Virus record (IMG/VR): IMGVR_UViG_3300045988_125841
Location: 1-52,919 of that record
Source of the DNA: a virus
Length of the DNA stretch: 52,919 nucleotides
Direction: 5' to 3' (one strand)
The notes below the pieces were generated by a model, which was given only the letters and a program-made list of their open reading frames with translations, was not told the origin of the DNA and did no database searches. The position numbers were made by a program, and so were the translations under genes. This document shows, in pieces, positions 1 through 23,680 of the stretch. Position 1 is the first letter of the stretch. Each line of letters opens with the position of its first letter.

Positions 1-55
1 CGAAACCGCATATTCATTAAATATTTAAGGGGTTCGAATCCCTCCGGGCGTACCA
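1..55 (+). repeat. attL core (left copy of the 55-bp direct repeat)
   Basis: 'cgaaaccgcatattcattaaatatttaaggggttcgaatccctccgggcgtacca' is identical to 52865..52919. Confidence 0.85.
28..55 (+). tRNA. 3' end of a tRNA-like gene (T-arm, acceptor 3' strand, discriminator A, CCA); isotype unassigned, 5' part lies outside the window
   Basis: Canonical T-loop context 'GGTTCGAATCC', followed by the 7-nt strand 'cgggcgt', then A and CCA. The 27 nt upstream do not fold into an anticodon arm in standard numbering. Confidence 0.5.
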
Positions 56-64
56 ACTCATCAT

Positions 65-107
65 AAACCGTATAAATGCTTGAAATCAAGCGTTTATGCG
101 GTTTTTT
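65..107 (+). terminator. Intrinsic terminator following the tRNA-like 3' end (phage-supplied replacement terminator)
   Basis: A 15-bp stem pairs c68-g82 with c87-g101 (two G-U pairs), with loop 'aaat' and a T-run at 102..107. Confidence 0.75.
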
Positions 108-132
108 AGTGCTTGTGAGAAGAAAATCAATG

Positions 133-160
133 TGATAAAAAGTGATAAAAAACGATAAAA
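133..160 (+). repeat. Three (T/C)GATAAAA motifs at exact 10-bp phasing in the att arm
   Basis: 'tgataaaa' at 133..140 and 143..150, and 'cgataaaa' at 153..160. The A-tracts are helically phased, making this a candidate bend or accessory-factor site. Confidence 0.5.
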
Positions 161-174
161 TGTTATACTTTTTT

Positions 175-212
175 GTTAGTCAGTTAGTCAAAAGTTAGTC
201 AGATTTTAGTCA
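175..212 (+). repeat. Four direct TTAGTCA repeats, candidate arm-type integrase binding sites
   Basis: 'gttagtca' at 175..182, 183..190 and 194..201, and 'ttagtca' at 206..212. Two more copies sit next to attR (52838..52855) in the same orientation. Confidence 0.6.
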
Positions 213-220
213 GAAACTAC

Positions 221-243
221 GCAAAATAGAGTGTGATACAATT
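221..243. repeat. Left copy of an inverted repeat whose partner lies upstream of int (51757..51783)
   Basis: 'gcaaaatagagtgtgatacaat' matches the reverse complement of 51757..51783 ('gcaaaaatagagtgtatgtgatacaat'). All 22 nt match once a 1-nt and a 4-nt gap are allowed. Confidence 0.5.
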
Positions 244-280
244 AAAATAAGCTACCGACTTAACGCCGGTAGCTTATTTT
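244..280 (-). terminator. Hairpin terminator immediately after the stop codon of the giant ORF
   Basis: A 10-bp stem pairs 248..257 with 267..276 ('taagctaccg'/'cggtagctta'). It is flanked by A4 and T4 runs, so it could act in both directions. Confidence 0.55.
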
Positions 281-3200
281 CTATTCGTCTTTTTTGAACT
301 TTGACTTGTTCTTTTCTTTGTACTGGTCTTTAATCGCTTTCAAAACATCACTGCCCAACTGCTTTAACATTTCTGTCTTTTCGTTATCAGACGCCCCTTG
401 ATATTTGGATGTATTTATAAGTTTTTTTCGGTTTGCTTCAAGCACTTTTTGATAGTCCTCGTAATACTTTTTGTATTCTGTATATGTCATTTCCCAAATG
501 TAAGACTGTTTATCCACCGTCATAGTTATTTTTGATTGTGGTAAACTGCTCATATATCCATCATCAGTCGTCATTTGCTTACTATTAAACAAACCAACGA
601 TACTCTTGTCTGTATCTGTTATTCCCGAATTAATATTTCTGACGTCTGCTATAAGCTCTTGTCTGGCTTTTCTTTGCTCGCTCTCAGATAATCTCTTTAT
701 TGCTTTGTTGGCTTGCGTTATATATGTAGCCTTACTTGCATATTTCTCGTACATACAAGCATTTTGTGGTGTAGGATTGTTTTGATATTTCTTAAACATT
801 TTATCTCGTCTTTCGTATACCTTATTAAATACGTCTGTTGAATATGCACTATCCGCGCTGAAAGACGTTCCGTATAGGTTAGACGGATTGAAGCCGTCAG
901 CAGTAACCGACCTATTGAGCTTACCGATAATACCGGTATAATTATCAATTAAGTGGTCTATTTTCATCGGCGACCAGTTAAATGTCTGACCTATTGACTT
1001 TGCCAATAAAGAAGTTTTTTGGTTGTATTGCTCCTTGTTTGGCTCGTCCTCAAGTGCCGAACTTACTATCGGCGTACCTTTAAAGTCTTTATTAACCATA
1101 TTATCAACAATTCCGCCTAATATTGTACCTCCTGCAGCTTGATGTACACCTTCTTCAATTCCTCCTTCTGCAATACCGGTAACAGGCAACCACGCAGGTA
1201 ATGTTGTATCACCGATGTATTGCCCAAATTGATAAAATGCTTCTTTATCACCAAAAGCGTAATCGGCGGCTCTTTCTGCTGTTGTGTTTAGTATTGCTGC
1301 TTCTCTTGATTTAGGTATTTTTATAAATTTTCCGTTACCTATAGATATGCAGTAAAAATTATTTTTTTGATACTGAGATAATTCTTCCCAACCATCTTCA
1401 TCTGACGTCCTGTTCCAAAATTCCAATAGTGCAGTAGTTAAAATTGCACTGATTAGGTACCTAAGCATATGCTTTGCAATCTCTTTTTTACCACCACTTG
1501 TGAATATACGAGCTTGTTTATCCATACCTTGAACAGTCGCATTTGAAAATCTAAATATTTTATTTAGTTTTCTGCCGACCTCACCGCTTCTATTGAAGTT
1601 GACGGTTATATCAGACGCGGCATAAATAGCTTGTTGATTATCGGCTCCCTTTTTCTTCATACCTTTAAATTCAGCCAGTCGCGGAATAGCTTCGGTGATT
1701 TCGTTGATTTTTGTAACGCATTCTATTGGGTGTAAGAATATTGCTTGTGCCAAACGCCTTGCAAGTCCTGCATCTTTTGAGTTCACCTCACGCAAAGTCT
1801 TTTTCAGTACATCAATATTATCGCTGAACATTGACATATGTCCACCGCCTGCAGCTTTATATTGTTTATAATTATCACTGTTTCTTATAACGTCCCATAA
1901 AGCTGACATATATGCACCTGTAAAAGTAATAGGATTATTATATGCTTTTGAATTTTTCATTGCAGTATCATAATCTCGTATTGCGTTCGTGGTAGCAAAA
2001 ACCGGATTTAGTTGCGTTATCAGTGCGTTTGTTATACCTAAAGTTCTTCCTGCAAAATTCATTATTTTTCCTGTTTGGACCGGTGTTAAATTTGTTATAG
2101 CATTAAACAGTGCCTTATCGTGTACCTGATAATATTTGCGCTTGCCTTTATTCAAATATGTAACTATTTGCTTTCCAGGTATAACTACAGGTGTATAACT
2201 TTCAACTTGTGTGCCGAATACGTCTTCAAAAACCTCTGTTAAGTTAAACAAATCGTTTTCGTCAAGACTTTCTGACATTCTGCCTAAGAATTCATCAGAC
2301 AACTTTTCAATGTTGATTATATTCTTTACTTGGTCTGGTGGCACAGGTTCTATAAAATTAGCAAACCCCGGTACATTGTCCGCATACATACCCAATACCG
2401 CCATAACTCTGTTTCTTGTTCCGAACTTTACTTGCTTTTCTACATTTTTTATAATACTTTCAAGTGGGGATATGATTGTAGCACCACTACCTTTCGCAGT
2501 TTTTACAGGACTTTGCTGATTTGCAAAACCACTTTTAAATCCTGTTCTGTTCCTACCAGTGTCACGCATAAACGGCACGTAATGTGGGTACATTTTTTGT
2601 AGTTTGTTGTATGTAATAGCATCCATACCACCCATAGATACTACCCAATATTTTAACATATCTTGTTGGAACTTGTACAGATTTTCCGACGCTTCTTTAA
2701 ATTCAGGGTGATTGTTTTCAAGATTTGCTATTTCTCTTTTTATTCGTTCAGAATTCTGCAAAGTATCATCGCTAAATACTCGTTTTAGTTTTGCGCCTTC
2801 TTGGGGTTCAATCCATTCTAAAGAGTGCTTTAATACTAAATATTTATCAAACAAATCTATATCTTTGTGTGATATATCTTTAATACAATCTATCAAACCT
2901 TTCCCACCTGTCAAATTGCCGTTTGGGTCTACCATTCCTTCTTTAAATATAGTAGACATAGTAGCGTCTACATTTTTAGAATTTATAGCTAAAATGTACG
3001 CGTCCTTTCTTCCGCTGAGAGTTCCTTTTAACTCTTTAACATAATCAGTAGCTTCTTTGATAGGTGCAAAGCTATCAACCAACTTGGTGTATATTTCTTT
3101 CGATATTTCACTTGCTGTTGGTTTGTTTTTCTTTTTTATCTCCTTGTTGCTGGTCATTGCCGCGTCTACTTTGTCCATAAAGTCCGAATTATAATATTGC

Positions 3201-6200
3201 TGTGAATATTCCGATAATGTTTTCAAAGCTTGAGCGTCCTTTGGAGAAAGGGTCTCAATGAATTCTTTCGAAAATTTCGGTACTTCCTTTATTGTACTTT
3301 GCGGGTCTTTAACAAACTCTCTCACAAATTCAGCCACTGCCTCGTCCGGTACTTCACTTTTTTTATATTGCTTCATCAATGTTGGGCTTTTTCGTTGTGC
3401 AAAGTCGATTATCTCATCAATATTAGCTGATGAAGTAAAATCATATTCATCATCAAGCAAATGTCCTAATTCGTGAGTAGCTGTCGGCAAGTCATTTGCT
3501 ATACGAAGTCTTACAGCTTTCGAAAGTTTCTTAAACTCACCTTTAGCTCTTGTCAGTGACAAATTTCCTTTTGAAATAGGTATATTGAACTCTTTTGAAA
3601 TATACGAAACAATATCGCCTAATTTCTTATTCTTTTGTTTTTTGCTGTTCTGCAGTTCGTTAGACGTCCAAGTATCAACAGTATTAGCTTGCTTAGAATA
3701 CTGAATATCACTACTCGTATCAGTCTTGTTTACTATTTTCTCACTTGTTTCACTCGTGTTCTCTGCTTTTTGATTTGCAGATGTTTCATTATAATGCTCA
3801 TACTTGTATGTTATATCTTTCTGCTTGGCAAGAGCTTCTTTTAGCTCTGTTTCTTTTTCGAAAGGCTTATTTGCTTCCTGCTTTGCAAATTCCAAATCGC
3901 TTTTAAACTTAGTAATACTATTTTGTGTATTGCTTAAATCCGAATCAAGCCTCTTTAGAACACCTGCTATTCTTGCAATATTATTTGCACCGCCAGCATA
4001 CTCGACTGTGTAGGTGTTTTCACCTTGAATTACAAGTGAGTAATCCATACCGCCTGTATTGCCTTTAAACTTAATTTTAAAGCCGTTATATGAGCCGATT
4101 GCATTATATTTGCCATTCTTCGGAGCAGACTTTATAGCTTCTGAAAGCGCTTTGTTTGCGTCTTTTTGTTTTTCATAACGCTTATCTTTAATGATTATTT
4201 CATTCTCATTATATTTATCTCTTAAAGCAATATCATTTTTCAAGCCTTTTTCTCGGTCAGTGTACTCCTCTATCAAGTGTGGATTTTTTGCAACGACATC
4301 TTGATAGTGATAAATTTCATTCAAATAACCTTGTTCCAGTGTTTTAAGTCTTGACACTTCTTTGTCTATATCTATCTTTTCTTTTACAAGTGGATTGCCT
4401 GATGTTATAGCCATAGCTGTTGCGGCGTCTATTGATTCGCCACCGTCGTCGCTTGCTCCGACATCTTCCATTTCTGAAATTGCGTCGCCTCGCAAAGCGG
4501 CTCTTATCATTTCGCCTTTGCGGTCCTGCGCTTGCCACTTATGACTGTCGAAAGTGTTTTCTTGTAGGTATCTGTAAATGCGTACTTCTTTGTTGATATT
4601 TCCCGAACGAACACCACGAGCATTACTTTGTTCCCAATCTGACGGTTTATATGTAACTGTGGGGTGATGTATTGCTACAACACGTTTTTGAACGTTAAGT
4701 CCCTCAGCCATCTTCTGACAAGTTCCAATTAATACACGAACGTCGCCGTTATTTACTTTTTCGTATAGCTCTTCAAGCTGTGCGTCTTTTTGGTTGCTTA
4801 TTATAACAATTTCTTCTTCCGGTACACCTCTTTCAATCAGTTTATTTTTAATATCCTTATGCAAATTAAAAGAATATACTTCGCCAGAACCTGCACCTTT
4901 ATCGCAAAATATGATTTGAGTGCCTTTTATGTTATTAGAATTTTTGTACTCATTGAGAACTTGTTTACACATAGTGTTAATTTTACTATTTTCGTGTTCA
5001 AGTTCATCAACAGAGTAATCTTTATACATATTTACGTCTGTTTCAGCGCCTGAAAGCATTCTTGTATCAACAGACGCCATATCTGCCATCGCCATTAGAC
5101 GAGCATATACTTTTAGCATTTCTTTCTTGTTAGTATTAGCTAAAGTATCTGTAATTTGTTGTTGTATTTGCTTATGCTCCGGAGTTCCTTCGATTTTTAT
5201 GTCTACATACTTCGCTTTAGGCAAATCCTTTACAACATCTTCTGTAAAAACTATGTCTGCGAATTGTCGAAACAGTCCTATCATTTCAGACGCATTTACA
5301 AAACTGCGTATTACTTGTGTTGATTTCGGTTTAATCTGCCCATCAATTCCTAATTCTACTGTGTTTTCAATTTTAGCAAATGTATTAACCCATTCATCAA
5401 GTGAATGTATTCCTGCTTCTTCTAATATATCTGGTCGTACCATTCGCATCATATTGTATATTTCTGATACAGTATTTGTTATAGGTGTGCCTGTTCCAAA
5501 CACGATTTTTCCGTTTATTGAACGCAAATAGTCTAACTTCATCAGCATATCGTTAGCTTGCTGTGCACTGCTACTATTTGCTAAACCTTTAATACTAAGT
5601 GATGTAGGTGTTGTAATACTTTTATAGTTATGTGCTTCATCTACACAAATAGCGTCAAAACCAAGCTTTTCAAATTCAATACCGTTTTCATCACGTTTTG
5701 TATCTGCATTTAGATTTTTTAATTTATCTTCAAGGTTATTTCTCTTTTTTATCAGATTTTTATATGCTCTTGTAGAACCATCTCTGTTGCTTTCAGCTTC
5801 TGCGATTTGTATATTGCATTCTTCAAGTTGTTGAGAAATAAAATTTGCTTCCAGTTGCTTACTTACCGGTATTTTAGTGAATGTAGTTCTTGCAATAAGG
5901 ACTATATCCCAATCATTTGAATTAACCAATCCAAGCATAGATTGTCTTTTGGCTTTTGCTGTATCTATCACAAGCACTTTTGCTGTCGGATAAGCTTCTG
6001 CTATATCGTTTCTGAAATCGACTACTTTGTTGTTTGGAACAACCATTGCAGTTTTATTTATGATACCCATTCGCTTAGCTTCCATAACCGAAGCAATCAT
6101 TTCAAATGTTTTACCTGTTCCTACACCGTGTGCAAAAAGAGTATTTCCGCCAAACAAAAAGCGTGCAATACCGTTCTTTTGATGTGGATATAGCTTTTCT

Positions 6201-9200
6201 TTTAATTCTTCGCTCATTGAATCAAAGGATAACTTTTCAGCTATATTCTTGTAATTAAGAGGTCTGTAATTATTGTACATTCGGTTATACTTATCTACAA
6301 TAACATTTCTTCTTTTGCTGTCACGGAATATCCAGGAATTGAAAACGTTTTTTATATCTTCAGCTTTTTGCTTTGCGACTTCTGTCATTTTTGTATCTAT
6401 AGTAACAACTTCTTTACCGTCAACAACAGATTTCGTTTTAGCCAATATTTCGCCGTCATTTAACACCTTTTCAAGAAGTTGTACCGCATTAAAAGCCTTG
6501 CAACCATATTTTGTGTTCACGATTTCGCCATATCGTCTTTGTCCTGCTCCATCAATCTTCCATTTTCCGCTTGAATCTTTTTCTATATTCAAGCGTTGAC
6601 CAAAAGTATCAAGTGCAAAACTTTCTATATATTTCGGGTCGATATAGTTTGCACCGAGTTTAACAATTATTTCAGAGGCATTTTTAGGTTTTGGTAAGAC
6701 TTGCTCAAGCATTTTTTCTTGTTCTTCAAAGTCGGGCTTACCTTTTACTTCGTCTAACTTTTCGTAGATGTTGCCCGACAAATATATATCAGTAAGAACA
6801 TAATCGCCTTGAGGTGTAAGCACAATTTCACCCTTTAATTCATCAGCAATCTGTTTTTCGGTTTTGCCCGTCAATTCTTGCATATGTTTAAAATCGACTT
6901 TGCCTGTTTCGTTTATAGATACTACAAGTGCGTCAGACGCAGTATCCACTTTAGTAATTTTTTTCTTGCGTAACGTATCTTTTTCAAACAATACCGATTT
7001 TGCAAATTCTTTTTTTGCTTTGTCGTATCTTTCCAAACCGCCTACTAAATAGAAATCTGAATCAGCTTTCAAAAAACTATTGTTCGTGCTTTTCTTTTTA
7101 CCTATTTTTTTCTTTCCGTCACCTGTAATCGGACCGTGTTTTTTATAAAAATTATCATATACTTCTGATAATTTTTTTCTTAATATTTCAATATCATCAT
7201 CCGGCAATTCTTTTTCGTAAGCTTCAAGAAGCTCTTTATAAACGTCCCTTACTGCAATATAGTCGCGTGCTGTATTTTCTTTTGCTCCCTTTAAAGCAGT
7301 TGCTGTTCCTGCTCCGTCGTCTTCATAAATGCGTCCGCCTTTTTCAAAAAATTTAGGCTTTTCAGACCACGAAACAAGTGTTTCAACTTTCTTTAACTCA
7401 CTTTTGCCATTCATTAGTCCTTTCGGCAATTTTGACATTGCGTCGTTTAGTTTTTCGTAGAAGTTACCATCACCGATTACTGTTGTAATTTCGCCCCACG
7501 CATTAGTTCCTTTCGCGAGAGCGCCTAAAATATTTTCCGAGTGCTTTTTGAAATACTCGTTAATTCTCAATCCATCATCGGTCGTGGTAACATTCAAAAT
7601 ACTGTCGCCACTCGGTCGCTGACCACTTGCGCGCTTCTGAAGAATTAACAAATCAGATTGTACACCGGTATTTGCACTTCGTGAAAATACACCTTCCGGC
7701 AGTTTATAGCAAGCGACAACGTCAGCTCTATCCATAATAGCTTTTCTTGCGTCTATTCCATAACTGTCTAATGTACCTGAACTTGTAATAACAGCTACAA
7801 TGCCACCCTCACGCACTTTGTCCAAAGATGATATGATAAAATAATTGTGCATTGAATATTTCTTTTTATCATATGAAATCTTGTTTTGACCGAAAGGTAC
7901 GTTACCGATTACTAAATCATATGAATTGTTTTTAAATGCTATATCTTGAAACGGTTTATTAATTACAGTTGCTCCAGGATATAGATATTGTGCAATTCTT
8001 GCAGTGTATGTTTCGAGTTCCACACCTGTAAGTGCTGATTTTGCAGTCATTGCGACAGGCATTCTACCAAAGAAATTACCTATACCCATTGAAGTTTCGA
8101 GAACGTTTCCACCTTTAAAACCTAATCTTTTAAGACCGTTATACATTGCATCAACAACTTTTGTAGGTGTAAAAAATGCGTTATTCATCGAATCTTGTAC
8201 ATTTTTTCGTTGCACACCGTCAAAATATCTGTTAAATCTTGAATATTGTTCATACGGCAGACGTCTTGTATCTATTCCACCCCACCCCTTGTATTTTGCG
8301 AGTATTTCTTTTTCTTCGTTTGTTGCTTCTCGTCCTTCTTCTTCCAACTTCAAAAGTAACTCTATTGCGTCAAGGTTATCTTTTGCACTCGGTGGAGTAG
8401 TATCGTATTTTTCAGCAAAATCATCGCTTATAACAAAATTATTCTTATTAGACGGTAACTTTTCTTTTTTGACGGTTTTTGCGCCTGTTTCTATAACATC
8501 GGGTGTATCATCGGTGTTGTCTTTTAATTGTCCAGGCTGTCCACCCATTCCTTGAACAACATCAATTCCTCCATTGTGTACTGTTCCTCGTCCTCGTCGT
8601 CCTCCGTCTGATACTCCTTCAGTTTCTGATGTAGTTTCTCTTTTATCAGTTCCTCCGTATATTCCCTCGCTATCATCTCTGACATCGGGTCTGTTTCTTT
8701 CGTTTCCAACTGATTGTCGTAGTCCGTTGTTGCTATCGTCGCTATGTGACGTATGAACTCCGTCAATTCCACTTTCTTCATTAGTTCCGTCAGTTCGGGT
8801 GCGTAGTCCTCTATCATCATTTCTACTTTTTCCGTCCAATACTCCTTGTTGCGATATGCCATTTTCTTTACCTCCGTTTTTTTGATTATCTACTTTTGAA
8901 ACCACTTTGTAATCGTGTGTTTGCTTAAAGTTTTCTATACCGCCGATATGTGAGAATGTCTGTTTGTTGTCACTCTTATCAAGATTTTCAAAACTCATAT
9001 TTAAGCCTGTTTGTGTAACTTTCCATTGCCTGCCATCATACTCGATTACATCGCCGATTTCCAAGTCAGGTATTTCTTTTATTGTATCATTTTCGGATTG
9101 GCTGTTCAATACAGTTTTATTGTTTTCTGAAACGTTTTCTTCGTCACTTTCTGTATTATTATTTGTTGATTGACTATCTTTGATATTTTCATCTGCTTGT

Positions 9201-12200
9201 ACATCATCTGTTTCTTTTAAAGTGCCTGTGGTTCCAAAGAAATCATTAAACACATCAAAAACTTCTTCTGTTGGTTCACTTTTAAAAATAAAACCCGGTA
9301 TCGGTTTGCCGTCGGGTGTTTTTGCGTATCTTGAATAATAGCCGCCTACTGCTTTTACTTTTGCATTTAGCTTTTTATATTCATCTGCTGAAATTCTCTC
9401 TTTTAAGCCTATAATCCATAAATCCTCGCCTGTTTTGGTATGCTTTGTTTGTGTGAGGTTACATTTATCTTTCAAATTTAATGTATCATTTTCTGTATCT
9501 CGACGTATACTACTATTGACAACATCACTATCTTGTGATACAATATTGTTAGTAGAGGATTTATCGTTAATAATTGCCAACCACTTATACAGTTGGGGAT
9601 TCACTTGCGATAAATCCTCTTTTTTGTATTTTATGTTTACACCTTCACCGGAAATCAAGTTTTTAGTATAGTTATCATTGGAACTGAACATTGTTACAAC
9701 AACATTGTAATCTTTGTATTTGCCACCAATATCTTTCGTACTGTTAAGCTCAACGGATATTATGCCATTATTTCCTTTTTTTGTTTTGACTGTTGTGAAC
9801 AAGTTTAGTTTACCATTTGCAAGCTGTATAATTGCGTCGGGATTTTGTAGAAAATCAGGTAATTTTTTTGCGATTTCCGCACCTAAATTGTGATAATGTC
9901 CCTCAAAAACACCGTTTTTTCTAACTGCAAGATATAACTTGGTATAATTGATTATCACTTTCAGATCTCTTGCACCTTTAACATTGTCAAGAATGACGTT
10001 AGGGGTATTTTTTAATATCTCGACCGCAACTCTATTATCTGCGAGTTCTTTTGCTGTTTCATCAGATACAGAAAGAATATTATCCACAGCATCATTGTAA
10101 TCTTCAAGTAATTGACCTACAGGAAGTGTTTCATTTGTTTTGATATCGGATTTAGGTATTTCTATTGTGGAATTGTCTTTTTGAGTTGCATTTTCCACCG
10201 GCGCTGCAAGGGGATTGGCACTGACCATTTCTTTAGCAGAATTTTCTTTAACTTGCAAATTACTCTTTATTGTATTTAATGCGTTTATAAATTGTGATAT
10301 TTCGCCCCCTGTCTTTGTTATCCCATCATTGTCGTTATGCAAATAAATCGAATATCCACTTGTTTCATTTTCGACTTGCTTCATAAATTCAATAGCAGTG
10401 TCTTGATTAGGGAATATTGCTGTTGCGTTGCCCGTCGGCAAATACGATACAATATAACTACCGTTTGAACTTTGGTGCGTGCCAAAGTGACCGTATGTAA
10501 CTCCTTGTTTTGTTTCGTATTCTCCATTTTTCTGTTTTACTGCAAACGACGTTTCACTTAGTTGGTTCGTATAGTCAATGCCTTGTTCTATAACATAACC
10601 TACATTTTGTCCATTTTCACTTACCGGAGCAAATTTTATATTGTTATTTGCATTTTCACTTATATTAAGTGAAGAATAATCGCCATTTTCTATATCTTGC
10701 ACTTGCGCGTTTAAAACTTCGTTTGCACCATATACATTATTGTGTAGATTGGCGTTTTTCTTTATCCCCTCTCTTAAAACATCTTTAAAATTTCTGACTA
10801 CGGTTTGAAATTCTCTGTTTCCGTCAAGTACACTGTTTCCGGTAAGAGTTTTATTTACAAGTTCATCAGCAAGATTATCTGTTTCTTGTGATAAAACTGT
10901 GTAGCTACGTCCGTTTTTCTCTGACATAGCTTGCACAAAGTCATTCGCATAGTTGCTTACATAGTTTCTGTCAAAAAGATTATCATTGTTCGACATAAAC
11001 TTTGTATTTGCCTCTTGTATACCTGTTGCACTTTCAGATACATTTAAGCCGACTTTATTCATTGCATTATGTACTTTCTCTGTAACTCGATTTACAGACG
11101 ATTGTACGCCGTTTTCTTGCGTGCTTATATTAGGTAATGTATCTATTGCATTTAATGTATCTACACTGTTAATCTCACTCGTTGTATCGTTAATGGTTGA
11201 ATTATCAGCGTTAATTTTGCTGTTTTGAGTGTTAATGTTGCTTATATCATTTACTTGCGCATTTAATGGTGCTGTTTCTTGAACTGTCTGCAAAGGCTCT
11301 ATTTCCGATGTTTTCGGTACATTTTGTATCGAATTTTCAGTTTGTGGTGTTGCATTTACGTTATTAATGTTTGTAGCTTCATTTACCTCATTGCCTGTTT
11401 CAGCAGTATTCATTTTGTTTAAAGTATTTTCTGCTACTCTTTTATCATAATTTATAACTTTTTCGTCTGAAAGTATATCTCTATACGCATTCATCGTTTT
11501 AACGAAGTAATCATTCATTTCCGCTACGCTTGATTTTTTCCAATCAATTTGTTTTGGAAGTTCAGGCATTTCTGCACCTGCCTCACGCACTTTCTGTGAT
11601 ACCTCTTTGTTGGTTCTGCTAATAATTTTTTTTACTTCATCACCATATTGTCTTACACTTTTTGCGTCAGTATGTAAAATGTTATCTACTACACCTGCAC
11701 CGCCCATTACAGCACCACCGACAGCACCGCCAAGAAAACTCTCGCCCAAAGCAGGTAAATCTATAACACCCTCTTTACCTACAAGTTTTCTTTGTTGTAT
11801 TTTTCCGTTTTCATCAACATATCCTACTTTTGAAACGACGTCACCCATTCTTTCAAATAATGTTGCGTACACTTCTTCCAAACCTTCACCGACATTAGCT
11901 TTCATATACTGTTTAAGAACTTTGCCGACATTCTTTTTTGTTGAGCCTGTTGGACTTAACGCAAACATCATACTTTTAGGAGTGCCATCATACCCCATTT
12001 TTTCTGTAATTGTATTCACATAACCTGTGAACATTGCATTTTTATAAGCCGTATCTTTGTCATATCCATTTTTGACAAGGTCGTCATATTTTTGTTGTGC
12101 TGAATCGATACCCATAAGCAAAGTAGTAGAATTATCCAAAGGGTTTAAAAATTTAGCAGCCGAACCTATCGAAAGGGTATTAGCTTTATTGATTGCGGCA

Positions 12201-13786
12201 TTAGCAATTTTTGAGCCAATTCCTTTTTCAGCGACATTTGCTATATCAGGTGTGGCATTTGCAACTTTAGAAATAGCTTGACCCGCTTTTGTTCCTTTTG
12301 CGGTCATTCCTATTGCTCTTCCTACACCACTTGTCAAGTCATTCAGACCTGTCATTTCAGCTGTGGCTGCCGCACCTGCCATTTCACCTGCCGACCTAAA
12401 CCCCCACTCGCCTATAGCATGAGTTATAGGATTTGTGTCGTTGTATCTTTCCATCCATTTGTCAAGATTTAATTTTGCAAAATAATCCCCTTTAGCACCG
12501 GAAGTATCAGAAGTTTTACTAAAAAAATCATTTCCCAACTCATCAGGATTTTCAGTATAATATTTATCAATTTCTTGCAACTGTTGCGAATATTCTCCAC
12601 CACCCAATTTTGATGCTTTAAAAGGAAAACCGTCTTTTACAAACGTCCTTATAGTGCTATCAGCTGAATCGTATGCACCCTTAAAGAAATTCGCAATAGG
12701 TTGAGTAATTTCTTTCTCTACACTGTCTTTACCGTTTGAACTTGACATAAGCGATAGTTTCTTTAAACCGGCATAAGATTTCGCATTTTTTAGTTCGTTT
12801 TCTGATAGGTCTAATTTATCTATCATTTCGTCAAGTTGTTGTGCTTTTTTATATTTATTTTTTTCTTTATTGCGTTTAAGAAAATTATCTATTGTCTTAA
12901 CTGTTCGATATTTTAACGAAATACTCTTATTATCCGTTATCGGTATATCGACTTGTTGATTTAGATATTCTTCTTTTTCGTCTGAATCTGATTGTTCTTC
13001 GTTCGGGTTTGTTTTTAAATTATCAGTCCCTCTTTTGGCAATATTAATAGCACCATACTTACCCGAAAAGTGCATAAGTTTGCCTCTATCCTCTGCACTG
13101 TATGGCTTATGATAATCTTTTTCGTCACCGTCAACGCCTGCAAAAATGCCGTGAACATATTTGTCGCCCACTTGCATACCTTTTTTATCAAGCGTTTCTA
13201 ATTCTTCATTTGTAACATTTCCGTTTTTTTCATATGCCTCTTTCACTAAAGAGTTCATATAATTATCAACAGTACCTTTATCCAAAAAAGTTCCGTCAGG
13301 CATAATAGGCGTATAAGCCACATTCCAACCGCTGTTATTTATATCCGTTCCGAATTTATCAGAACCACCAAATACTGTATCAATACCGCCGATTTCAGGG
13401 TCATACCCCCAACTTTTCAACTCATTTTCATACTTCTTCTTTAATTCATCATTCCAACGTATAAGAGGTCGCTTGTTCATATTGACATTGCCGAATTTGG
13501 TTGGGAGTTCCTCTTTTTTGATTTGGTCTATTGTGTAATCGTAAAATCCCCAATCTTTTGCTTTTTGATATTCGTTTTGTAGTTCTTGAATTTTAGGTAT
13601 ATCATTAAAACTTGACTTTCCTGTTTCTTTGAATAAACCCTTGCCCTTTTCGATTTTCTTTGTGTTTTTTGTTTCTTCTTTTTGTTCAGAGGGTACACTT
13701 CTTGGTGTGTACCCTTGTTTTGTTAATTCATCACGAATTGATTGAACATTATTTTTAAAATCCTTATATGATGTTATTTTTCCCAT
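281..13786 (-). CDS. Giant 4501-aa polyvalent protein: unassigned N-terminal ~1640 aa, N6-adenine methyltransferase, SNF2/DEAH helicase, HExxH metallopeptidase motif and a ~1000-aa unassigned C-terminal region
   Basis: An uninterrupted 13.5-kb ORF in AT-rich DNA. SD 'aggag' lies 7 nt upstream of the ATG. Enzyme motifs are listed as separate sub-features. It is the last gene of the late operon. Confidence 0.9.
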   Translation of the reverse strand: MGKITSYKDFKNNVQSIRDELTKQGYTPRSVPSEQKEETKNTKKIEKGKGLFKETGKSSFNDIPKIQELQNEYQKAKDWGFYDYTIDQIKKEELPTKFGNVNMNKRPLIRWNDELKKKYENELKSWGYDPEIGGIDTVFGGSDKFGTDINNSGWNVAYTPIMPDGTFLDKGTVDNYMNSLVKEAYEKNGNVTNEELETLDKKGMQVGDKYVHGIFAGVDGDEKDYHKPYSAEDRGKLMHFSGKYGAINIAKRGTDNLKTNPNEEQSDSDEKEEYLNQQVDIPITDNKSISLKYRTVKTIDNFLKRNKEKNKYKKAQQLDEMIDKLDLSENELKNAKSYAGLKKLSLMSSSNGKDSVEKEITQPIANFFKGAYDSADSTIRTFVKDGFPFKASKLGGGEYSQQLQEIDKYYTENPDELGNDFFSKTSDTSGAKGDYFAKLNLDKWMERYNDTNPITHAIGEWGFRSAGEMAGAAATAEMTGLNDLTSGVGRAIGMTAKGTKAGQAISKVANATPDIANVAEKGIGSKIANAAINKANTLSIGSAAKFLNPLDNSTTLLMGIDSAQQKYDDLVKNGYDKDTAYKNAMFTGYVNTITEKMGYDGTPKSMMFALSPTGSTKKNVGKVLKQYMKANVGEGLEEVYATLFERMGDVVSKVGYVDENGKIQQRKLVGKEGVIDLPALGESFLGGAVGGAVMGGAGVVDNILHTDAKSVRQYGDEVKKIISRTNKEVSQKVREAGAEMPELPKQIDWKKSSVAEMNDYFVKTMNAYRDILSDEKVINYDKRVAENTLNKMNTAETGNEVNEATNINNVNATPQTENSIQNVPKTSEIEPLQTVQETAPLNAQVNDISNINTQNSKINADNSTINDTTSEINSVDTLNAIDTLPNISTQENGVQSSVNRVTEKVHNAMNKVGLNVSESATGIQEANTKFMSNNDNLFDRNYVSNYANDFVQAMSEKNGRSYTVLSQETDNLADELVNKTLTGNSVLDGNREFQTVVRNFKDVLREGIKKNANLHNNVYGANEVLNAQVQDIENGDYSSLNISENANNNIKFAPVSENGQNVGYVIEQGIDYTNQLSETSFAVKQKNGEYETKQGVTYGHFGTHQSSNGSYIVSYLPTGNATAIFPNQDTAIEFMKQVENETSGYSIYLHNDNDGITKTGGEISQFINALNTIKSNLQVKENSAKEMVSANPLAAPVENATQKDNSTIEIPKSDIKTNETLPVGQLLEDYNDAVDNILSVSDETAKELADNRVAVEILKNTPNVILDNVKGARDLKVIINYTKLYLAVRKNGVFEGHYHNLGAEIAKKLPDFLQNPDAIIQLANGKLNLFTTVKTKKGNNGIISVELNSTKDIGGKYKDYNVVVTMFSSNDNYTKNLISGEGVNIKYKKEDLSQVNPQLYKWLAIINDKSSTNNIVSQDSDVVNSSIRRDTENDTLNLKDKCNLTQTKHTKTGEDLWIIGLKERISADEYKKLNAKVKAVGGYYSRYAKTPDGKPIPGFIFKSEPTEEVFDVFNDFFGTTGTLKETDDVQADENIKDSQSTNNNTESDEENVSENNKTVLNSQSENDTIKEIPDLEIGDVIEYDGRQWKVTQTGLNMSFENLDKSDNKQTFSHIGGIENFKQTHDYKVVSKVDNQKNGGKENGISQQGVLDGKSRNDDRGLRTRTDGTNEESGIDGVHTSHSDDSNNGLRQSVGNERNRPDVRDDSEGIYGGTDKRETTSETEGVSDGGRRGRGTVHNGGIDVVQGMGGQPGQLKDNTDDTPDVIETGAKTVKKEKLPSNKNNFVISDDFAEKYDTTPPSAKDNLDAIELLLKLEEEGREATNEEKEILAKYKGWGGIDTRRLPYEQYSRFNRYFDGVQRKNVQDSMNNAFFTPTKVVDAMYNGLKRLGFKGGNVLETSMGIGNFFGRMPVAMTAKSALTGVELETYTARIAQYLYPGATVINKPFQDIAFKNNSYDLVIGNVPFGQNKISYDKKKYSMHNYFIISSLDKVREGGIVAVITSSGTLDSYGIDARKAIMDRADVVACYKLPEGVFSRSANTGVQSDLLILQKRASGQRPSGDSILNVTTTDDGLRINEYFKKHSENILGALAKGTNAWGEITTVIGDGNFYEKLNDAMSKLPKGLMNGKSELKKVETLVSWSEKPKFFEKGGRIYEDDGAGTATALKGAKENTARDYIAVRDVYKELLEAYEKELPDDDIEILRKKLSEVYDNFYKKHGPITGDGKKKIGKKKSTNNSFLKADSDFYLVGGLERYDKAKKEFAKSVLFEKDTLRKKKITKVDTASDALVVSINETGKVDFKHMQELTGKTEKQIADELKGEIVLTPQGDYVLTDIYLSGNIYEKLDEVKGKPDFEEQEKMLEQVLPKPKNASEIIVKLGANYIDPKYIESFALDTFGQRLNIEKDSSGKWKIDGAGQRRYGEIVNTKYGCKAFNAVQLLEKVLNDGEILAKTKSVVDGKEVVTIDTKMTEVAKQKAEDIKNVFNSWIFRDSKRRNVIVDKYNRMYNNYRPLNYKNIAEKLSFDSMSEELKEKLYPHQKNGIARFLFGGNTLFAHGVGTGKTFEMIASVMEAKRMGIINKTAMVVPNNKVVDFRNDIAEAYPTAKVLVIDTAKAKRQSMLGLVNSNDWDIVLIARTTFTKIPVSKQLEANFISQQLEECNIQIAEAESNRDGSTRAYKNLIKKRNNLEDKLKNLNADTKRDENGIEFEKLGFDAICVDEAHNYKSITTPTSLSIKGLANSSSAQQANDMLMKLDYLRSINGKIVFGTGTPITNTVSEIYNMMRMVRPDILEEAGIHSLDEWVNTFAKIENTVELGIDGQIKPKSTQVIRSFVNASEMIGLFRQFADIVFTEDVVKDLPKAKYVDIKIEGTPEHKQIQQQITDTLANTNKKEMLKVYARLMAMADMASVDTRMLSGAETDVNMYKDYSVDELEHENSKINTMCKQVLNEYKNSNNIKGTQIIFCDKGAGSGEVYSFNLHKDIKNKLIERGVPEEEIVIISNQKDAQLEELYEKVNNGDVRVLIGTCQKMAEGLNVQKRVVAIHHPTVTYKPSDWEQSNARGVRSGNINKEVRIYRYLQENTFDSHKWQAQDRKGEMIRAALRGDAISEMEDVGASDDGGESIDAATAMAITSGNPLVKEKIDIDKEVSRLKTLEQGYLNEIYHYQDVVAKNPHLIEEYTDREKGLKNDIALRDKYNENEIIIKDKRYEKQKDANKALSEAIKSAPKNGKYNAIGSYNGFKIKFKGNTGGMDYSLVIQGENTYTVEYAGGANNIARIAGVLKRLDSDLSNTQNSITKFKSDLEFAKQEANKPFEKETELKEALAKQKDITYKYEHYNETSANQKAENTSETSEKIVNKTDTSSDIQYSKQANTVDTWTSNELQNSKKQKNKKLGDIVSYISKEFNIPISKGNLSLTRAKGEFKKLSKAVRLRIANDLPTATHELGHLLDDEYDFTSSANIDEIIDFAQRKSPTLMKQYKKSEVPDEAVAEFVREFVKDPQSTIKEVPKFSKEFIETLSPKDAQALKTLSEYSQQYYNSDFMDKVDAAMTSNKEIKKKNKPTASEISKEIYTKLVDSFAPIKEATDYVKELKGTLSGRKDAYILAINSKNVDATMSTIFKEGMVDPNGNLTGGKGLIDCIKDISHKDIDLFDKYLVLKHSLEWIEPQEGAKLKRVFSDDTLQNSERIKREIANLENNHPEFKEASENLYKFQQDMLKYWVVSMGGMDAITYNKLQKMYPHYVPFMRDTGRNRTGFKSGFANQQSPVKTAKGSGATIISPLESIIKNVEKQVKFGTRNRVMAVLGMYADNVPGFANFIEPVPPDQVKNIINIEKLSDEFLGRMSESLDENDLFNLTEVFEDVFGTQVESYTPVVIPGKQIVTYLNKGKRKYYQVHDKALFNAITNLTPVQTGKIMNFAGRTLGITNALITQLNPVFATTNAIRDYDTAMKNSKAYNNPITFTGAYMSALWDVIRNSDNYKQYKAAGGGHMSMFSDNIDVLKKTLREVNSKDAGLARRLAQAIFLHPIECVTKINEITEAIPRLAEFKGMKKKGADNQQAIYAASDITVNFNRSGEVGRKLNKIFRFSNATVQGMDKQARIFTSGGKKEIAKHMLRYLISAILTTALLEFWNRTSDEDGWEELSQYQKNNFYCISIGNGKFIKIPKSREAAILNTTAERAADYAFGDKEAFYQFGQYIGDTTLPAWLPVTGIAEGGIEEGVHQAAGGTILGGIVDNMVNKDFKGTPIVSSALEDEPNKEQYNQKTSLLAKSIGQTFNWSPMKIDHLIDNYTGIIGKLNRSVTADGFNPSNLYGTSFSADSAYSTDVFNKVYERRDKMFKKYQNNPTPQNACMYEKYASKATYITQANKAIKRLSESEQRKARQELIADVRNINSGITDTDKSIVGLFNSKQMTTDDGYMSSLPQSKITMTVDKQSYIWEMTYTEYKKYYEDYQKVLEANRKKLINTSKYQGASDNEKTEMLKQLGSDVLKAIKDQYKEKNKSKFKKDE
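3461..3475 (-). other. HExxH zinc-metallopeptidase motif inside the giant ORF (aa 3438-3442, 'HELGH')
   Basis: Context is 'LPTATHELGHLLDDEYDF'. No other catalytic residues could be assigned by eye. Confidence 0.5.
4550..6250 (-). other. SNF2/DEAD-like helicase module of the giant ORF (boundaries approximate, aa ~2510-3080)
   Basis: Walker A 'GVGTGKT' (6107..6127), 'VDEAH' (5630..5644), 'GTGTPITN' (~5478..5497), 'LIGTCQKMAEGLN' (~4695..4730) and motif VI 'QSNARGVRSG' (4601..4630). Confidence 0.8.
7330..8400 (-). other. N6-adenine DNA methyltransferase-like module of the giant ORF (boundaries approximate, aa ~1800-2150)
   Basis: SAM-binding motif I 'ETSMGIGNFFG' (8066..8098) precedes the catalytic motif IV-like 'GNVPFG' (7889..7906). 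This motif order is typical of gamma-class amino-methyltransferases. Confidence 0.7.
8524..8862 (-). CDS. Candidate nested gene in the +1 frame of the giant ORF (112 aa, acidic, helical-looking)
   Basis: ATG at 8862 is preceded by 'GGAGG' (8871..8875) with an 8-nt spacer. This is the longest same-strand alternative-frame ORF in the 13.5-kb gene, and it spans exactly the disordered linker. Confidence 0.25.
   Translation of the reverse strand: MAYRNKEYWTEKVEMMIEDYAPELTELMKKVELTEFIRHIATIATTDYDNQLETKETDPMSEMIAREYTEELIKEKLHQKLKEYQTEDDEDEEQYTMEELMLFKEWVDSLDN
8530..8880 (-). other. Low-complexity G/D/R/S/T/N-rich linker of the giant ORF (aa ~1636-1752)
   Basis: The main frame reads 'GKENGISQQGVLDGKSRNDDRGLRTRTDGTNEESGID...GGRRGRGTVHNGGIDVVQGMGGQPGQ'. 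The coding strand here is purine-rich. Confidence 0.7.
11687..11737 (-). other. Gly/Ala-rich hydrophobic segment in the giant ORF (aa 684-700, 'FLGGAVGGAVMGGAGVV')
   Basis: Read directly from the translation. It follows a longer A/G/T-rich stretch ('SAGEMAGAAATAEMTG...') and may be a membrane-inserting segment. Confidence 0.45.
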
Positions 13787-13802
13787 ACCTATACTCCTAT
13801 TT

Positions 13803-15611
13803 TTACTGTTGAGTTACTTCGTATATTTCATCGTCTGATATTCCTATAGACTTTAATAACGGTAATTTGTGGTTTTGTGCGATAGATGTGTCATTTAATA
13901 CGTTGGCTATAAGCATTTTCTTTTGACCGCTCGGAATACTCGGATTTACTTGATATTGTCCGGCTGAATTTTTTTGAAGTATATCCATGCCTGATGACGT
14001 TTGAGACCTTTTATTATTCTGTTTAACCCAATCTTTCAAAAATGAACTGTCCAAACCGCTCACCTGACCGGTTGAACTACCATTTGCTCCTACTGCACCA
14101 CTCGTTTGATTATATTCATTAATTGCGTCGTTTGATTTAGCTGTATTTTCTGCAATATTATTTTTTGAGGTGTTATTTGCTTCTGCTATATTGTTACGAG
14201 AATTATTATTTGCCTCCGCTATGTTATTACGTGATTGGTTGTTTGCAACGTCCATGTCATTCTTGGCACTTGCGTCATTAACACGAATTGTATTATCGGC
14301 TTGATTATTGTTAATACGGATTGTATTGTCAGCCTCAATGCCTGGCATTCTTTCTTCGTGGTCGTAACCCATTTGTGCAATATCCTTGCTGTTTTTAAGT
14401 TCTGCGTCAAACTGTCTTGCGTCCTCTGTTTGCGTATTCGGAACACCGTAATCACCGTCATCATATTGACCGTATTTACTGTAGTTGTTCCAAATTTTTA
14501 CGCCCCTTGCAACTCTCGCCGCCTGTGCTGTCTGCGTATCACCTCTTGCGATAGCTTGTTCGATTACCTTTTTATAGTCAATATCTTCTATCGGATTGCC
14601 GTTATCATCAAAGAATGGATTTGAAGAATATTGCATACCCTTAGGAATTTGACCTGTAACTTGTGCTGTTGTTGCGTCACGTGATACTTTACCGTTAAGT
14701 ACAGTTTCATTTCTTTGTACTTCGTTATTCTTTGCTGTTTCGTCTCTGTTGAACGCATTGTCGATTTGAACACCCATATCGGATAGGATTTTTCGTGCCT
14801 GTTCAATTTTTTGCGTTGAATTATAAGCGTTTTGCACCTTTGCATTATACGCGTCTAATACATTCTGTTGCGCCTGTGAGTATAGCGCCGCTTGCTGTCG
14901 CATTGCGTTTGCGGCGCTGTAACTGTCAACATTACCGCCGTTTGAAGCTGTACCTAAAGCAAGCTGATTATTTCTTCCCTGTATAGCTGATAGATTATAT
15001 TTACCAAGTATCGCTTTTGCCTCATCGGTAGAAAAAGGATTAGCTTTAACCAAGTTCATATAGTCGTTATAATCTTGTGTATTTGTTTTCATCAAGTCGT
15101 TATAATGGTCGAATAGATTACTTTGCTGTTGACCTACAAGGCTTGATGTGGTTTGACTTTTGCCTGTGTCTTGAACATAGTTTTTAAAAGCATTATCAAG
15201 CGTACTGTTATCCCAATAAGATACCCCATTTGAGCCTATTGCCGACGGCTTGCCTATGTTTTTACCGCCTAAGCTAACCTCACCTGTCGTATCGTTATAT
15301 TGAAGTGCATTGTCTATATCGCTTTGACTTAAACCGTACTTTGAGCCTAAGCCGTAAAAATACGGTCTAATTGCACTTTTACCGCTCTGTGCAAAGTAGT
15401 CATTAACATACTTCTTTGACGCGTCATATCCGCTGTTATAAAGCGTGTCGGCAAGCTTTGTGTCACCATTTTCACGCATTTGTCCGTAATAGTTTTGTGC
15501 CTCGTTTGCTATTTGTGCCGTTTTCTTTGTATCGCCCTCTGCATTTGCATTAAGCCAATTACCTTTTAGCCGTAATATTGTATTTACGGCGTCTTGCGTA
15601 TTATATGCCAT
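13803..15611 (-). CDS. 602-aa N/Q/S-rich protein with 11-aa tandem repeats; candidate internal virion/ejection protein
   Basis: SD 'aaggaggt' lies 7 nt upstream of the ATG. The gene is tightly coupled between the PG hydrolase and the giant ORF. No enzymatic motif was recognised. Confidence 0.8.
   Translation of the reverse strand: MAYNTQDAVNTILRLKGNWLNANAEGDTKKTAQIANEAQNYYGQMRENGDTKLADTLYNSGYDASKKYVNDYFAQSGKSAIRPYFYGLGSKYGLSQSDIDNALQYNDTTGEVSLGGKNIGKPSAIGSNGVSYWDNSTLDNAFKNYVQDTGKSQTTSSLVGQQQSNLFDHYNDLMKTNTQDYNDYMNLVKANPFSTDEAKAILGKYNLSAIQGRNNQLALGTASNGGNVDSYSAANAMRQQAALYSQAQQNVLDAYNAKVQNAYNSTQKIEQARKILSDMGVQIDNAFNRDETAKNNEVQRNETVLNGKVSRDATTAQVTGQIPKGMQYSSNPFFDDNGNPIEDIDYKKVIEQAIARGDTQTAQAARVARGVKIWNNYSKYGQYDDGDYGVPNTQTEDARQFDAELKNSKDIAQMGYDHEERMPGIEADNTIRINNNQADNTIRVNDASAKNDMDVANNQSRNNIAEANNNSRNNIAEANNTSKNNIAENTAKSNDAINEYNQTSGAVGANGSSTGQVSGLDSSFLKDWVKQNNKRSQTSSGMDILQKNSAGQYQVNPSIPSGQKKMLIANVLNDTSIAQNHKLPLLKSIGISDDEIYEVTQQ
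14151..14348 (-). repeat. About six tandem 33-nt coding repeats (11-aa units such as 'SRNNIAEANNN' and 'ADNTIRINNNQ')
   Basis: The 33-nt periodicity is visible in both the DNA and the translation of the 602-aa ORF. Confidence 0.8.
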
Positions 15612-15624
15612 TCATTTTACCTCC

Positions 15625-16989: not shown

Positions 16990-16999
16990 TTACTCCTTA

Positions 17000-17809: not shown

Positions 17810-17814
17810 ATTTC

Positions 17815-18069: not shown

Positions 18070-18071
18070 AT

Positions 18072-19445: not shown

Positions 19446-19448
19446 TTT

Positions 19449-19550: not shown

Positions 19551-19551
19551 T

Positions 19552-19947: not shown

Positions 19948-19957
19948 AATAGCCTCC

Positions 19958-22624: not shown

Positions 22625-23680
22625 TTAACTTGTACTTGACGGTAAGCCTATTACCGTACATTTTGAAAAATCCCAAGTGCCTTTTGGGTATGTCTTACTT
22701 CCAGTCGAACCTATAAAAGACGTTCCTACAGCTTTTATAGCAATACCAACACCCGTATCGTAAATCTGAAAAACTTCTTGTCCTTTGCCATTCGATACTC
22801 GCTTCAATGTCAAATCACCATAATTACCGCTTGAATTACCAATAGTCACATACGCCCTTTTATCCTCATTATAAAATTTCGCTCCAACTATATCTGTACC
22901 TGTTATCGTTCCCTCTGTTATAAGGTCACCGCTCACCTTTACGCAACCGTTCAATATAAATCCGCCTGATATTTGAGTGAATGCAGAATTAATGCCGTTT
23001 TTTTCGTCATACTCTAACCAATCTTGTAAAATATCATTGAAATAATAATATTTGTTGTTATATTTGCAGAGTTTTTCTTTATCCAACGTTTTATCACTTG
23101 CGGACGGTTTTTCTTTTACTGTAACAGCCTCTGACGTATTCATTTTTTCGAATGCAAGTGATTCAATCTTTTCTGCTGTTTGATTGAATTGTGTTTCCAC
23201 ACCTTTCTTTAGCTTTGAAACCCTTGTAGATATTCCGTCGGCAGTCATAGTGAACGTTGAAGATAATGTTTCTACTGAATTATCCGTGTATTCTTGACTT
23301 GATACTACTGACATTTCAATAGCTTGTGCCGTTTGCGATACGGTTGAATATTGATTTAGACTGTTTTCTAAGTCCTCATACGATACTTTGCTTTCTATCT
23401 TTTCAGCCGTTACACTGAATTGAGTATCATAGCCGTTTAATTTTTTTCGCAAAGTGGTTGCGAGGTTGCTTTCGTCTATGTTGTCTAAAGCGTCTTCTAA
23501 TGTCCTTTTCAGCTTAACGTAATTGTCGTTTAATTCCGATACCGTTTCTCTGAGCTGTTTGTAATTCATATTGTTAATATCATCTTGATGATACAAATAA
23601 CTCACCTCCTGGAGTAATACCGAGTTCCATTTCATAGAAACGTACATAGCCGTGTCCCTCAAAATGTAACTTGTAGCCAT
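22625..23680 (-). CDS. Tail fibre-like structural protein with repeated coiled-coil motifs; start uncertain
   Basis: 'TQFSVTAEKIESKV' and 'TQFNQTAEKIESLA' are internal repeats. A more likely start is the TTG at 23596 (SD 'GGAGGTG' 6 nt upstream), which cuts the overlap with the upstream gene to 17 nt. Confidence 0.75.
   Translation of the reverse strand: MATSYILRDTAMYVSMKWNSVLLQEVSYLYHQDDINNMNYKQLRETVSELNDNYVKLKRTLEDALDNIDESNLATTLRKKLNGYDTQFSVTAEKIESKVSYEDLENSLNQYSTVSQTAQAIEMSVVSSQEYTDNSVETLSSTFTMTADGISTRVSKLKKGVETQFNQTAEKIESLAFEKMNTSEAVTVKEKPSASDKTLDKEKLCKYNNKYYYFNDILQDWLEYDEKNGINSAFTQISGGFILNGCVKVSGDLITEGTITGTDIVGAKFYNEDKRAYVTIGNSSGNYGDLTLKRVSNGKGQEVFQIYDTGVGIAIKAVGTSFIGSTGSKTYPKGTWDFSKCTVIGLPSSTS

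Follow-up and report, generated by a model that had tools for sequence, protein, structure and literature searches.

A 4501-residue polyvalent protein of a temperate human-gut phage combines a DarB-like block with a conserved C-terminal module

Polyvalent proteins were defined by Iyer et al. (2017), who predicted that those of the phage type are packed into the capsid and delivered together with the DNA; the methyltransferase-SNF2 dyad of the DarB type and a zincin-like peptidase were among the recurrent parts, and LPD38 was a domain found in phages only. A very large example is gp69 of phage JC1 (4515 amino acids [aa]; 22.1% of the genome), which combines a lytic transglycosylase, a methyltransferase, a helicase, LPD3, and LPD38; CsCl-purified virions yielded 51 unique peptides of gp69, and mass spectrometry of Bcep22 virions by Gill et al. 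is cited in the JC1 paper. The phi24B protein gp47 is plentiful in virions and missing from the cryo-electron microscopy map, and its authors propose an ejection protein, while knock-down of PTXU04_00025, in which LPD38 is the sole annotated domain, blocks efficient infection. In their work on the ejection proteins of P22, Leavitt et al. (2021, PMC8402733) note that proteins putatively assigned to this role reach a very large size in some short-tailed phages, with a maximum of 5007 aa. In phage P1, DarB (250 kDa) belongs to the head proteins and carries a capsid-targeting signal at its N terminus, and an 8-kb terminal open reading frame (ORF) of this general kind has been noted in prophages of C. 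clostridioforme. Here we analyze a giant ORF of the IMG/VR virus record IMGVR_UViG_3300045988_125841 (52,919 nucleotides [nt], the whole of which is called the window below) and compare it with these systems.

The giant gene is a single open frame of 4501 codons with an ATG start and zero internal stops (Table 1). Its product has a mass of 503 kDa, and with 13506 of 52864 nt it fills 25.5% of the genome, as had been noted in an earlier interpretation made from the DNA letters without database searches (here, the sequence-only reading), which described one 13,506-nt ORF taking about 25% of the element. By its domain content and genomic setting, the giant ORF is a phage-type polyvalent protein sensu Iyer et al. 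(2017). It unites an N6-adenine methyltransferase, an SNF2 ATPase, a MuF-C/PBECR domain, and an HExxH site, so that one chain combines several enzyme or effector domains that are unrelated to one another; it lies among the late genes of a portal- and terminase-encoding (pro)phage; and it carries the phage-only domain LPD38 with a Pfam score of 116.6 bits, compared with a cut-off of 27. The label "polyvalent" used in the sequence-only reading is thus borne out by Pfam LPD38 and MuF_C, which are hallmarks of these proteins. Packaging followed by injection as a multi-tool is the standard reading of the class, and kinship with the class therefore extends it to the present protein, which is probably packaged in the virion and ejected into the host. 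The same hypothesis in the sequence-only reading is supported, here by homology; it is not a new idea, but the published view (Iyer et al. 2017; Bcep22 and JC1 papers). The individual sub-functions are less certain than packaging and ejection.

The central part of the protein is a DarB-like block in the order methyltransferase, linker, SNF2 ATPase, and post-helicase helical region, and the match to phrog_10089 ("DarB-like antirestriction") is limited to this block. Its catalytic motifs are intact. In the methyltransferase, motif I reads LETSMGIGNF (aa 1896-1905; nt 8072-8101) and is followed by NVPF (aa 1962-1965; nt 7892-7903). The SNF2 set runs from Q (aa 2532) through I (GVGTGKT, aa 2554-2560; nt 6107-6127), Ia, II (DEAH, aa 2716), III (TGTP, aa 2765), and V to VI (QSNARGVR, aa 3053). 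Both enzymes had been recognized in the sequence-only reading, whose motif positions were right to within a few bases; all of its motifs are present, and the methyltransferase is now supported by Pfam. The likeness to DarB proposed there also stands, because BLASTP aligned P1 DarB to the giant protein in four collinear high-scoring segment pairs (9e-22, 7e-6, 7e-16, and 3e-13), P1 DarB carries the same unusual NVPF motif, and the phrog_10089 match is strong. The alignment with Bcep22 gp75 is more extensive (29.5% identity over 1643 alignment columns, E=4e-170), and the collinear blocks comprise not only aa 1800-3321 of the giant protein (aa 1584-3165 of gp75) but also aa 3726-4164 (aa 3860-4315), the latter outside the DarB-like block.

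The C-terminal module (aa 3385-4501, ~1100 aa) consists of a zincin-like domain, a helical body, a hydrophobic helix, and LPD38. The HExxH motif reported in the sequence-only reading at 3461..3475 is HELGH (aa 3438-3442), and 44 residues on the sequence EAVAEFVR provides a further glutamate (aa 3482); the two histidines, the glutamate between them, and the downstream glutamate are invariant in 16 aligned homologues. A hydrophobic helix stronger than that of the giant protein is found at approximately the corresponding position in four of five relatives (Bcep22, Palmer, PTXU04, and BA3), with positions that agree with the BLAST offsets, whereas phi24B has no hydrophobic helix before LPD38 at the threshold used. 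AlphaFold2 (AF2) gave confident models for the C-terminal module (mean predicted local distance difference test [pLDDT] 81, predicted template modeling score 0.73, mostly helical) and for aa 60-258, but neither matched a PDB fold, and for the C-terminal model Foldseek returned nothing from the PDB at E<=1e-3.

The relatives indicate which parts of such proteins are constant. Matches to the C-terminal module were found in 356 records of isolated phages, and those taxa among them that were listed and examined are short-tailed or podophage-like (Stx, Vibrio, and Ralstonia phages, Bacillus Pagevirus, PTXU04, BA3, and a Pelagibacter phage). In all five examined cases (Palmer, BA3, Bcep22, PTXU04, and phi24B), the module forms the C-terminal end of a giant ORF that lies late in the structural block, with one further gene after it in BA3, PTXU04, and Palmer. 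A search of GTDB genomes with C-terminal patterns retrieved 54 loci of gut or rumen Clostridia that encode relatives of the giant protein. In a map of 50 of them, hardly any locus lacks the helical body or LPD38, ~29 have the zincin region, and ~10 have the methyltransferase-SNF2 pair, while the N-terminal parts are variable and only sporadic. Since these loci were fished with C-terminal patterns, the constancy of the C terminus among them is partly built in; the isolated phages exhibit the same pattern of core and cargo independently of the Clostridia search. As judged by these comparisons, a conserved C-terminal module is combined with exchangeable N-terminal and central domains, and the N-terminal 1800 aa of the giant protein appear as variable cargo.

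This cargo begins with an alpha/beta domain (aa 60-258) whose counterpart lies at approximately residue 530-730 of gut-phage proteins of 1500-2270 aa, and two of four tested proteins carrying a domain of this type matched tape-measure PHROGs. The family (P0001-P0054) has the invariant motifs FGN..M..R, SW, D.V.G, and H.F.G; the core of its AF2 model reaches a pLDDT of >90, Foldseek and profile searches against the PDB gave no match, and in BFVD it matched only predicted structures of giant proteins from gut viromes. The domain may act in the envelope and may have been exchanged between tape measures and podophage giants. It is the sole part common to tape-measure-matching proteins; the giant protein itself matched no tape-measure PHROG and is therefore not classed by profile as a tape-measure protein. 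One gut phage or prophage (L064, 1327-16136) carries two consecutive giant genes: a tape-measure-like protein of 2269 aa with a domain of the aa 60-258 type (P0008) is followed by an 87-aa gene and then by a giant of at least 2955 aa.

The N-terminal module that follows has few relatives. Among 1.84 billion representatives, the region of aa ~270-900 found ~60 clusters, mostly N termini of proteins of 2400-4500 aa, and with the first 1300 aa as the query, tblastn found no match in isolated phages. At the end of the module, the Gly/Ala-rich hydrophobic segment seen in the sequence-only reading is present as the Gly-rich, glycine-zipper-like stretch GGAVGGAVMGGAG (aa 686-698; nt 11693-11731). Similar stretches occur in BA3_0002 (~334), phi24B_48 (~422), Bcep22 gp75 (~504), and PTXU04_25 (~313). 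By hhalign, the module has no significant similarity to the N termini of the Bcep22, PTXU04, BA3, Palmer, and phi24B giants; the lowest E-value (0.099) was obtained at the two glycine-zipper stretches, and the shared Gly-rich motif is therefore a resemblance, with homology not shown. The MuF-C region aligns with that of phi24B_48 and is a predicted RNase-like effector domain, in keeping with the classification of MuF_C as a PBECR RNase-like domain by Iyer et al. (2017). The small domain of aa 1445-1511 recurs in several Clostridia giants and has no Pfam match, and the hydrophobic-poor stretch of aa ~1515-1765 is probably disordered.

The phage itself is an active temperate phage that exists in both circular and integrated forms. 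The window ends (1-55 and 52865-52919) are identical over 55 nt, which is the overlap of a circular assembly; in a contig from another sample (L002), the giant gene continues across this junction into the integrase with an exact match of 400 nt, and the window is therefore a circular assembly. An integrated copy (L001) is inserted at tRNA-Arg, where the identity with the window ends after the 26 nt of the attachment core, and murA, ftsQ, and ftsZ lie beyond it. The second copy of the core in the window is merely a product of the 55-nt overlap of the circular assembly. The term prophage used in the sequence-only reading thus holds for L001, but not for the window, which is not bounded by attachment repeats. 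Exact FtsZ and MurA sequences from the flank of L001 bear the NCBI label Hominilimicola sp. (Oscillospiraceae), and a short-tailed phage of this Gram-positive host is the best explanation of the data.

Upstream of the giant gene and on the same strand, the element encodes TerL, a P22-like portal, the major capsid protein, a collagen-like tail fiber, and the lysis genes; the order holin, Amidase_3 endolysin, 454-aa glucosaminidase and NlpC/P60 protein, 602-aa protein, and giant agrees with the order given in the sequence-only reading (lysis cassette, peptidoglycan hydrolase, 602-aa gene, and giant). The 454-aa protein is probably a virion-associated cell wall hydrolase. The 602-aa protein, which gave zero family matches, belongs to a large, unannotated family of at least 246 clusters with the invariant motif NGGN.DS...N..RQQ; one of these clusters contains 834 near-identical sequences, and judged by it the phage is seemingly widespread in human gut metagenomes. 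By hhalign, no relation was detected between this family and the genes that precede the giant in Bcep22, Palmer, and phi24B. Between holin and endolysin (~17812-18069, minus strand), an 84-aa gene has the precomputed Pfam label Sequestin (PF21825). In the structural region, an ORF of 351 aa (22625-23680, minus strand; 323 aa as called in L001) has a sub-threshold match to a pore-forming, ESAT-6-like NCBIfam model (E=0.004; 17 bits, cut-off 100). The G+C content is higher in the head and packaging genes (window 14000-34000; 0.42-0.45) than in the giant gene (281-13786; 0.35-0.36), a contrast that would fit a late region of mosaic origin.

Broad searches with the giant gene and its surroundings yielded little. 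Nucleotide search against isolated phages gave zero matches, the whole protein found only weak SNF2 matches among PDB sequences (E>=0.13) and nothing of use in NCBIfam, and neither Rfam families in the window nor tandem repeats in 1..14000 were detected. Plus-strand ORFs of 100-183 aa inside the giant gene found no support and are regarded as antisense noise.

Taken together, we propose that the giant protein would be synthesized late, at the same time as the structural proteins, enter the capsid of the short-tailed temperate Hominilimicola phage, and be expelled via portal and tail at infection, before or with the DNA. The C-terminal core may serve encapsidation, or the building or anchoring of a DNA conduit in the envelope by insertion into the membrane, or both. 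The methyltransferase and SNF2 translocase of the DarB block would work on the entering DNA, methylating it, and blunt type I-like restriction, while the MuF-C/PBECR domain might attack host RNA. A role in the envelope is suggested for aa 60-258, because this domain occupies the place of the lytic transglycosylase of the Bcep22 type and is common to tape-measure proteins. The zincin site could cut the chain into working pieces by self-cleavage or could serve encapsidation, as discussed for N4 vRNAP. A more far-reaching proposal is that the C-terminal module is a widespread ejection and envelope-crossing core of short-tailed phages and a platform for swapping cargo, that in the present Gram-positive version the N-terminal domain is a new wall-penetration enzyme, and that the giant is the functional equivalent of a tape measure in a phage lacking one; this we put forward as a speculation that is rather doubtful as it stands.

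Several observations weigh against packaging and ejection or against single steps of the proposal. Packaging is deduced from relatives that share just 22-30% identity, and the universality of the C-terminal core is partly circular owing to the way in which the Clostridia loci were retrieved. The zincin assignment comes from the motif, as the matches of this region are below significance in Pfam (E=0.14), in the profile search of the PDB (E>=0.058), and in Foldseek (E>=0.095); in the profile search, most matches were to zinc proteases, with the HExxH helix as the aligned part, a hint that falls short of proof. N4 vRNAP has a similar zincin-like domain, yet is packaged uncleaved. The helix of aa 4103-4121 is only moderately hydrophobic (Kyte-Doolittle 1.3). 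For P1 DarB, the mechanism has been described as undefined and plasmid tests as confounded by DNA-mediated restriction alleviation, and tblastn with P1 DarA, DdrA, DdrB, and Ulx as queries found no match in the window at E<0.1, Hdf not being included in the search. In line with the sequence-only reading, no tape measure was recognizable in the element and a P22-like portal was found, but the absence is negative evidence and is weakened by an 837-aa ORF in the tail region (23580..26093, minus strand) that has no family assignment and whose relatives in phage databases are unannotated human-faecal contigs alone.

Three other explanations have to be weighed against a packaged and ejected protein. 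The window is a metagenomic assembly, and parts of the giant protein have few relatives, which might point to a chimera or to genes fused by sequencing errors. Yet the identical 4501-aa product occurs on eight contigs from at least two human-gut samples and different assemblers, and it is split on none of them, so that the stop codons in independent assemblies by which the sequence-only reading would have been refuted are absent. Moreover, related unbroken ORFs of 3500 to >4400 aa are present in many metagenome-assembled genomes of Clostridia, Bcep22 gp75 is collinear, and the probability that 4501 codons remain open is ~1e-160, because the base composition of the region predicts 0.079 stops per codon. 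An artefact of assembly or annotation is hence excluded for practical purposes. A cytoplasmic, unpackaged protein that serves in the lysogen or during replication as a defense or epigenetic module, similar to restriction-modification (R-M), DISARM, or BREX, would have in its favor that type I/III R-M and DISARM are likewise built around a methyltransferase with an SNF2/SF2 helicase (Iyer et al. 2017) and that the giant gene adjoins the attachment site, a frequent place for accessory "moron" genes of prophages. This explanation is highly improbable, because the giant protein contains no nuclease domain, because PADLOC defense models gave only a marginal MTase_II match (E=5e-4, 0 stretches), and because of the late-operon context: the gene is co-oriented with the late structural and lysis genes and separated by 16 nt from the preceding 602-aa gene, and no promoter or terminator signals exceeding chance were found around it. 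LPD38 and MuF-C also mark virion-protein contexts, and homologues have been found in virions. The reading as DISARM, BREX, or type I/III R-M was accordingly rejected.

The third explanation stays closer to the packaged and ejected protein, as it regards the giant as mainly an anti-restriction protein, a giant DarB, whose remaining parts tether it in the capsid and which would be dispensable on restriction-free hosts. The strongest single match, to a DarB-like PHROG, the direct homology to P1 DarB, and the name assigned by the Joint Genome Institute (adenine-specific DNA methylase) all fit this view, and P1 darB is non-essential and active only against EcoB/EcoK. A pure anti-restriction role is nevertheless unlikely, because the DarB block is optional and the C-terminal module is not: Palmer gp20, PTXU04_00025, and phi24B gp47 lack the former and keep the latter, just ~10 of the 50 related Clostridia giants have the block, and PTXU04_00025 is needed for infection even though it has no methyltransferase or helicase. 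Packaging and ejection, with the DarB block as one of several cargo domains, therefore remains the preferred reading.

Table 1. Coordinates of the giant gene, its domains, and associated features in the window (aa positions refer to the giant protein)
Feature	Position	Strand	Basis or remark
Giant polyvalent-protein gene	281..13786	-	4501 aa; final gene of late operon
Shine-Dalgarno AGGAG	13794..13798	-	8 nt 5' of ATG, read from sequence
N-terminal alpha/beta domain, aa ~60-258	13013..13609	-	~50% identity to tape-measure-embedded domain
N-terminal module, aa ~270-760	11507..12979	-	Common only to N termini of other 2400-4500-aa giants
MuF-C/PBECR domain, aa 1297-1379	9650..9898	-	Pfam MuF_C 5e-8 (whole protein), 9e-10 (tile)
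Small conserved domain, aa 1445-1511	9254..9454	-	48% identity to Thalassomonas phage BA3_0002
DarB-like block, aa 1524-3387	3626..9217	-	phrog_10089 E=0, 1085 bits
N6-adenine methyltransferase, aa ~1870-2054	7625-8179	-	Pfam N6_Mtase, Eco57I
SNF2 ATPase, aa 2531-3110	4457-6196	-	Pfam SNF2-rel, ResIII
Zincin-like domain, aa ~3400-3520	3227..3589	-	HELGH and conserved Glu
Helical body, aa ~3520-4100	1487..3226	-	AF2, homologues
Moderately hydrophobic helix, aa 4103-4121	1424..1480	-	Directly before LPD38
LPD38, aa 4131-4295	902..1396	-	Pfam 1.9e-33 (whole protein), 4e-35 (tile)
602-aa partner gene	13803..15611	-	Directly upstream of giant gene in related elements too
454-aa glucosaminidase and NlpC/P60 protein	15625..16989	-	Pfam; tail-protein PHROGs 329, 400
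Attachment core, 26 nt, 3' end of tRNA-Arg(ACG)	30..55	+	Copy at 52894-52919

In some phages, between a fifth and a quarter of the genome is given over to a giant polyvalent protein, and a mechanism has been defined for none of these proteins. The comparison of modules across relatives separates, in a clear and testable way, a conserved core from cargo that can be exchanged, and it extends the Bcep22/Stx-phage type of giant to Gram-positive Clostridia, with different cargo domains and in a host that is a common gut genus.

With respect to the classical internal proteins of short-tailed phages, i.e., P22 gp7/gp16/gp20, T7 gp14/15/16, and N4 vRNAP, the likeness lies in the proposed function: all are encoded late and exit via the tail, and N4 vRNAP is an enzyme of 3500 aa that is delivered with the DNA and carries a zincin-like domain with a link to encapsidation. 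The giant showed no similarity in sequence or profile to the P22 and T7 ejection proteins or to N4 vRNAP, and membership in these families is not claimed. The capsid-interior anti-restriction protein P1 DarB (2255 aa) resembles the giant in the succession of an NVPF methyltransferase and an SF2/SNF2 helicase. P1 is a myovirus, however, in which DarB is a separate protein with its own targeting signal, depends on Hdf, DarA, DdrA, DdrB, and Ulx, and lacks the LPD38, zincin site, and MuF-C of the giant.

Closer in genomic setting is gp47 of phi24B (vb_24B_48; 2807 aa, with homologues of the 933W type), which is likewise the product of the last late-operon gene of a temperate short-tailed phage, next to the genome end or attachment site, and has a MuF-C region and a C-terminal LPD38 module. 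It contains LPD5 and LPD1 instead of a methyltransferase and helicase, and its HExxH motifs are located elsewhere. PTXU04_00025 (2197 aa), Palmer gp20 (1678 aa), and BA3_0002 (2631 aa) have the C-terminal module in common with the giant, hydrophobic helix before LPD38 included, but are shorter and lack the DarB block; among the three, a functional test exists for PTXU04_00025 alone. The Bacillus Pagevirus Palmer has a Firmicute host and an NlpC/P60 wall hydrolase gene followed by the giant gene, as in the window phage, and BA3_0002 has both a zincin site and the domain corresponding to aa 1445-1511.

The nearest counterparts overall are those of the Bcep22 type, comprising Bcep22 gp75 (4602 aa), JC1 gp69 (4515 aa), and the protein of Serratia phage Parlo (3764 aa). 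They are nearly the same size as the giant and take a similar share of the genome (22% versus 25%), they end the virion morphogenesis block and are preceded by a protein of ~500-600 aa, and they have the same order of an N-terminal region, an N6-adenine methyltransferase, an SNF2 ATPase, and a long C-terminal region with LPD38. The differences concern identity, which is only 22-30%, the Gram-positive host of the present phage, and the cargo. Bcep22, JC1, and Parlo have an N-terminal lytic transglycosylase and LPD3, neither of which (SLT and LPD3) was found by Pfam in the giant, whereas the giant has the tape-measure-type domain, MuF-C/PBECR, and an HExxH...E site that opens the C-terminal module; the sole HExxH of Bcep22 gp75 is at another location, and the upstream partners of the Bcep22 type have no detectable relation to the 602-aa protein. 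The giant therefore has close architectural precedents in a described class, the current picture of which is unchanged, and the novelties are modest, namely a Gram-positive human-gut host, another set of cargo, a domain shared with tape measures, and a clear picture of core and cargo.

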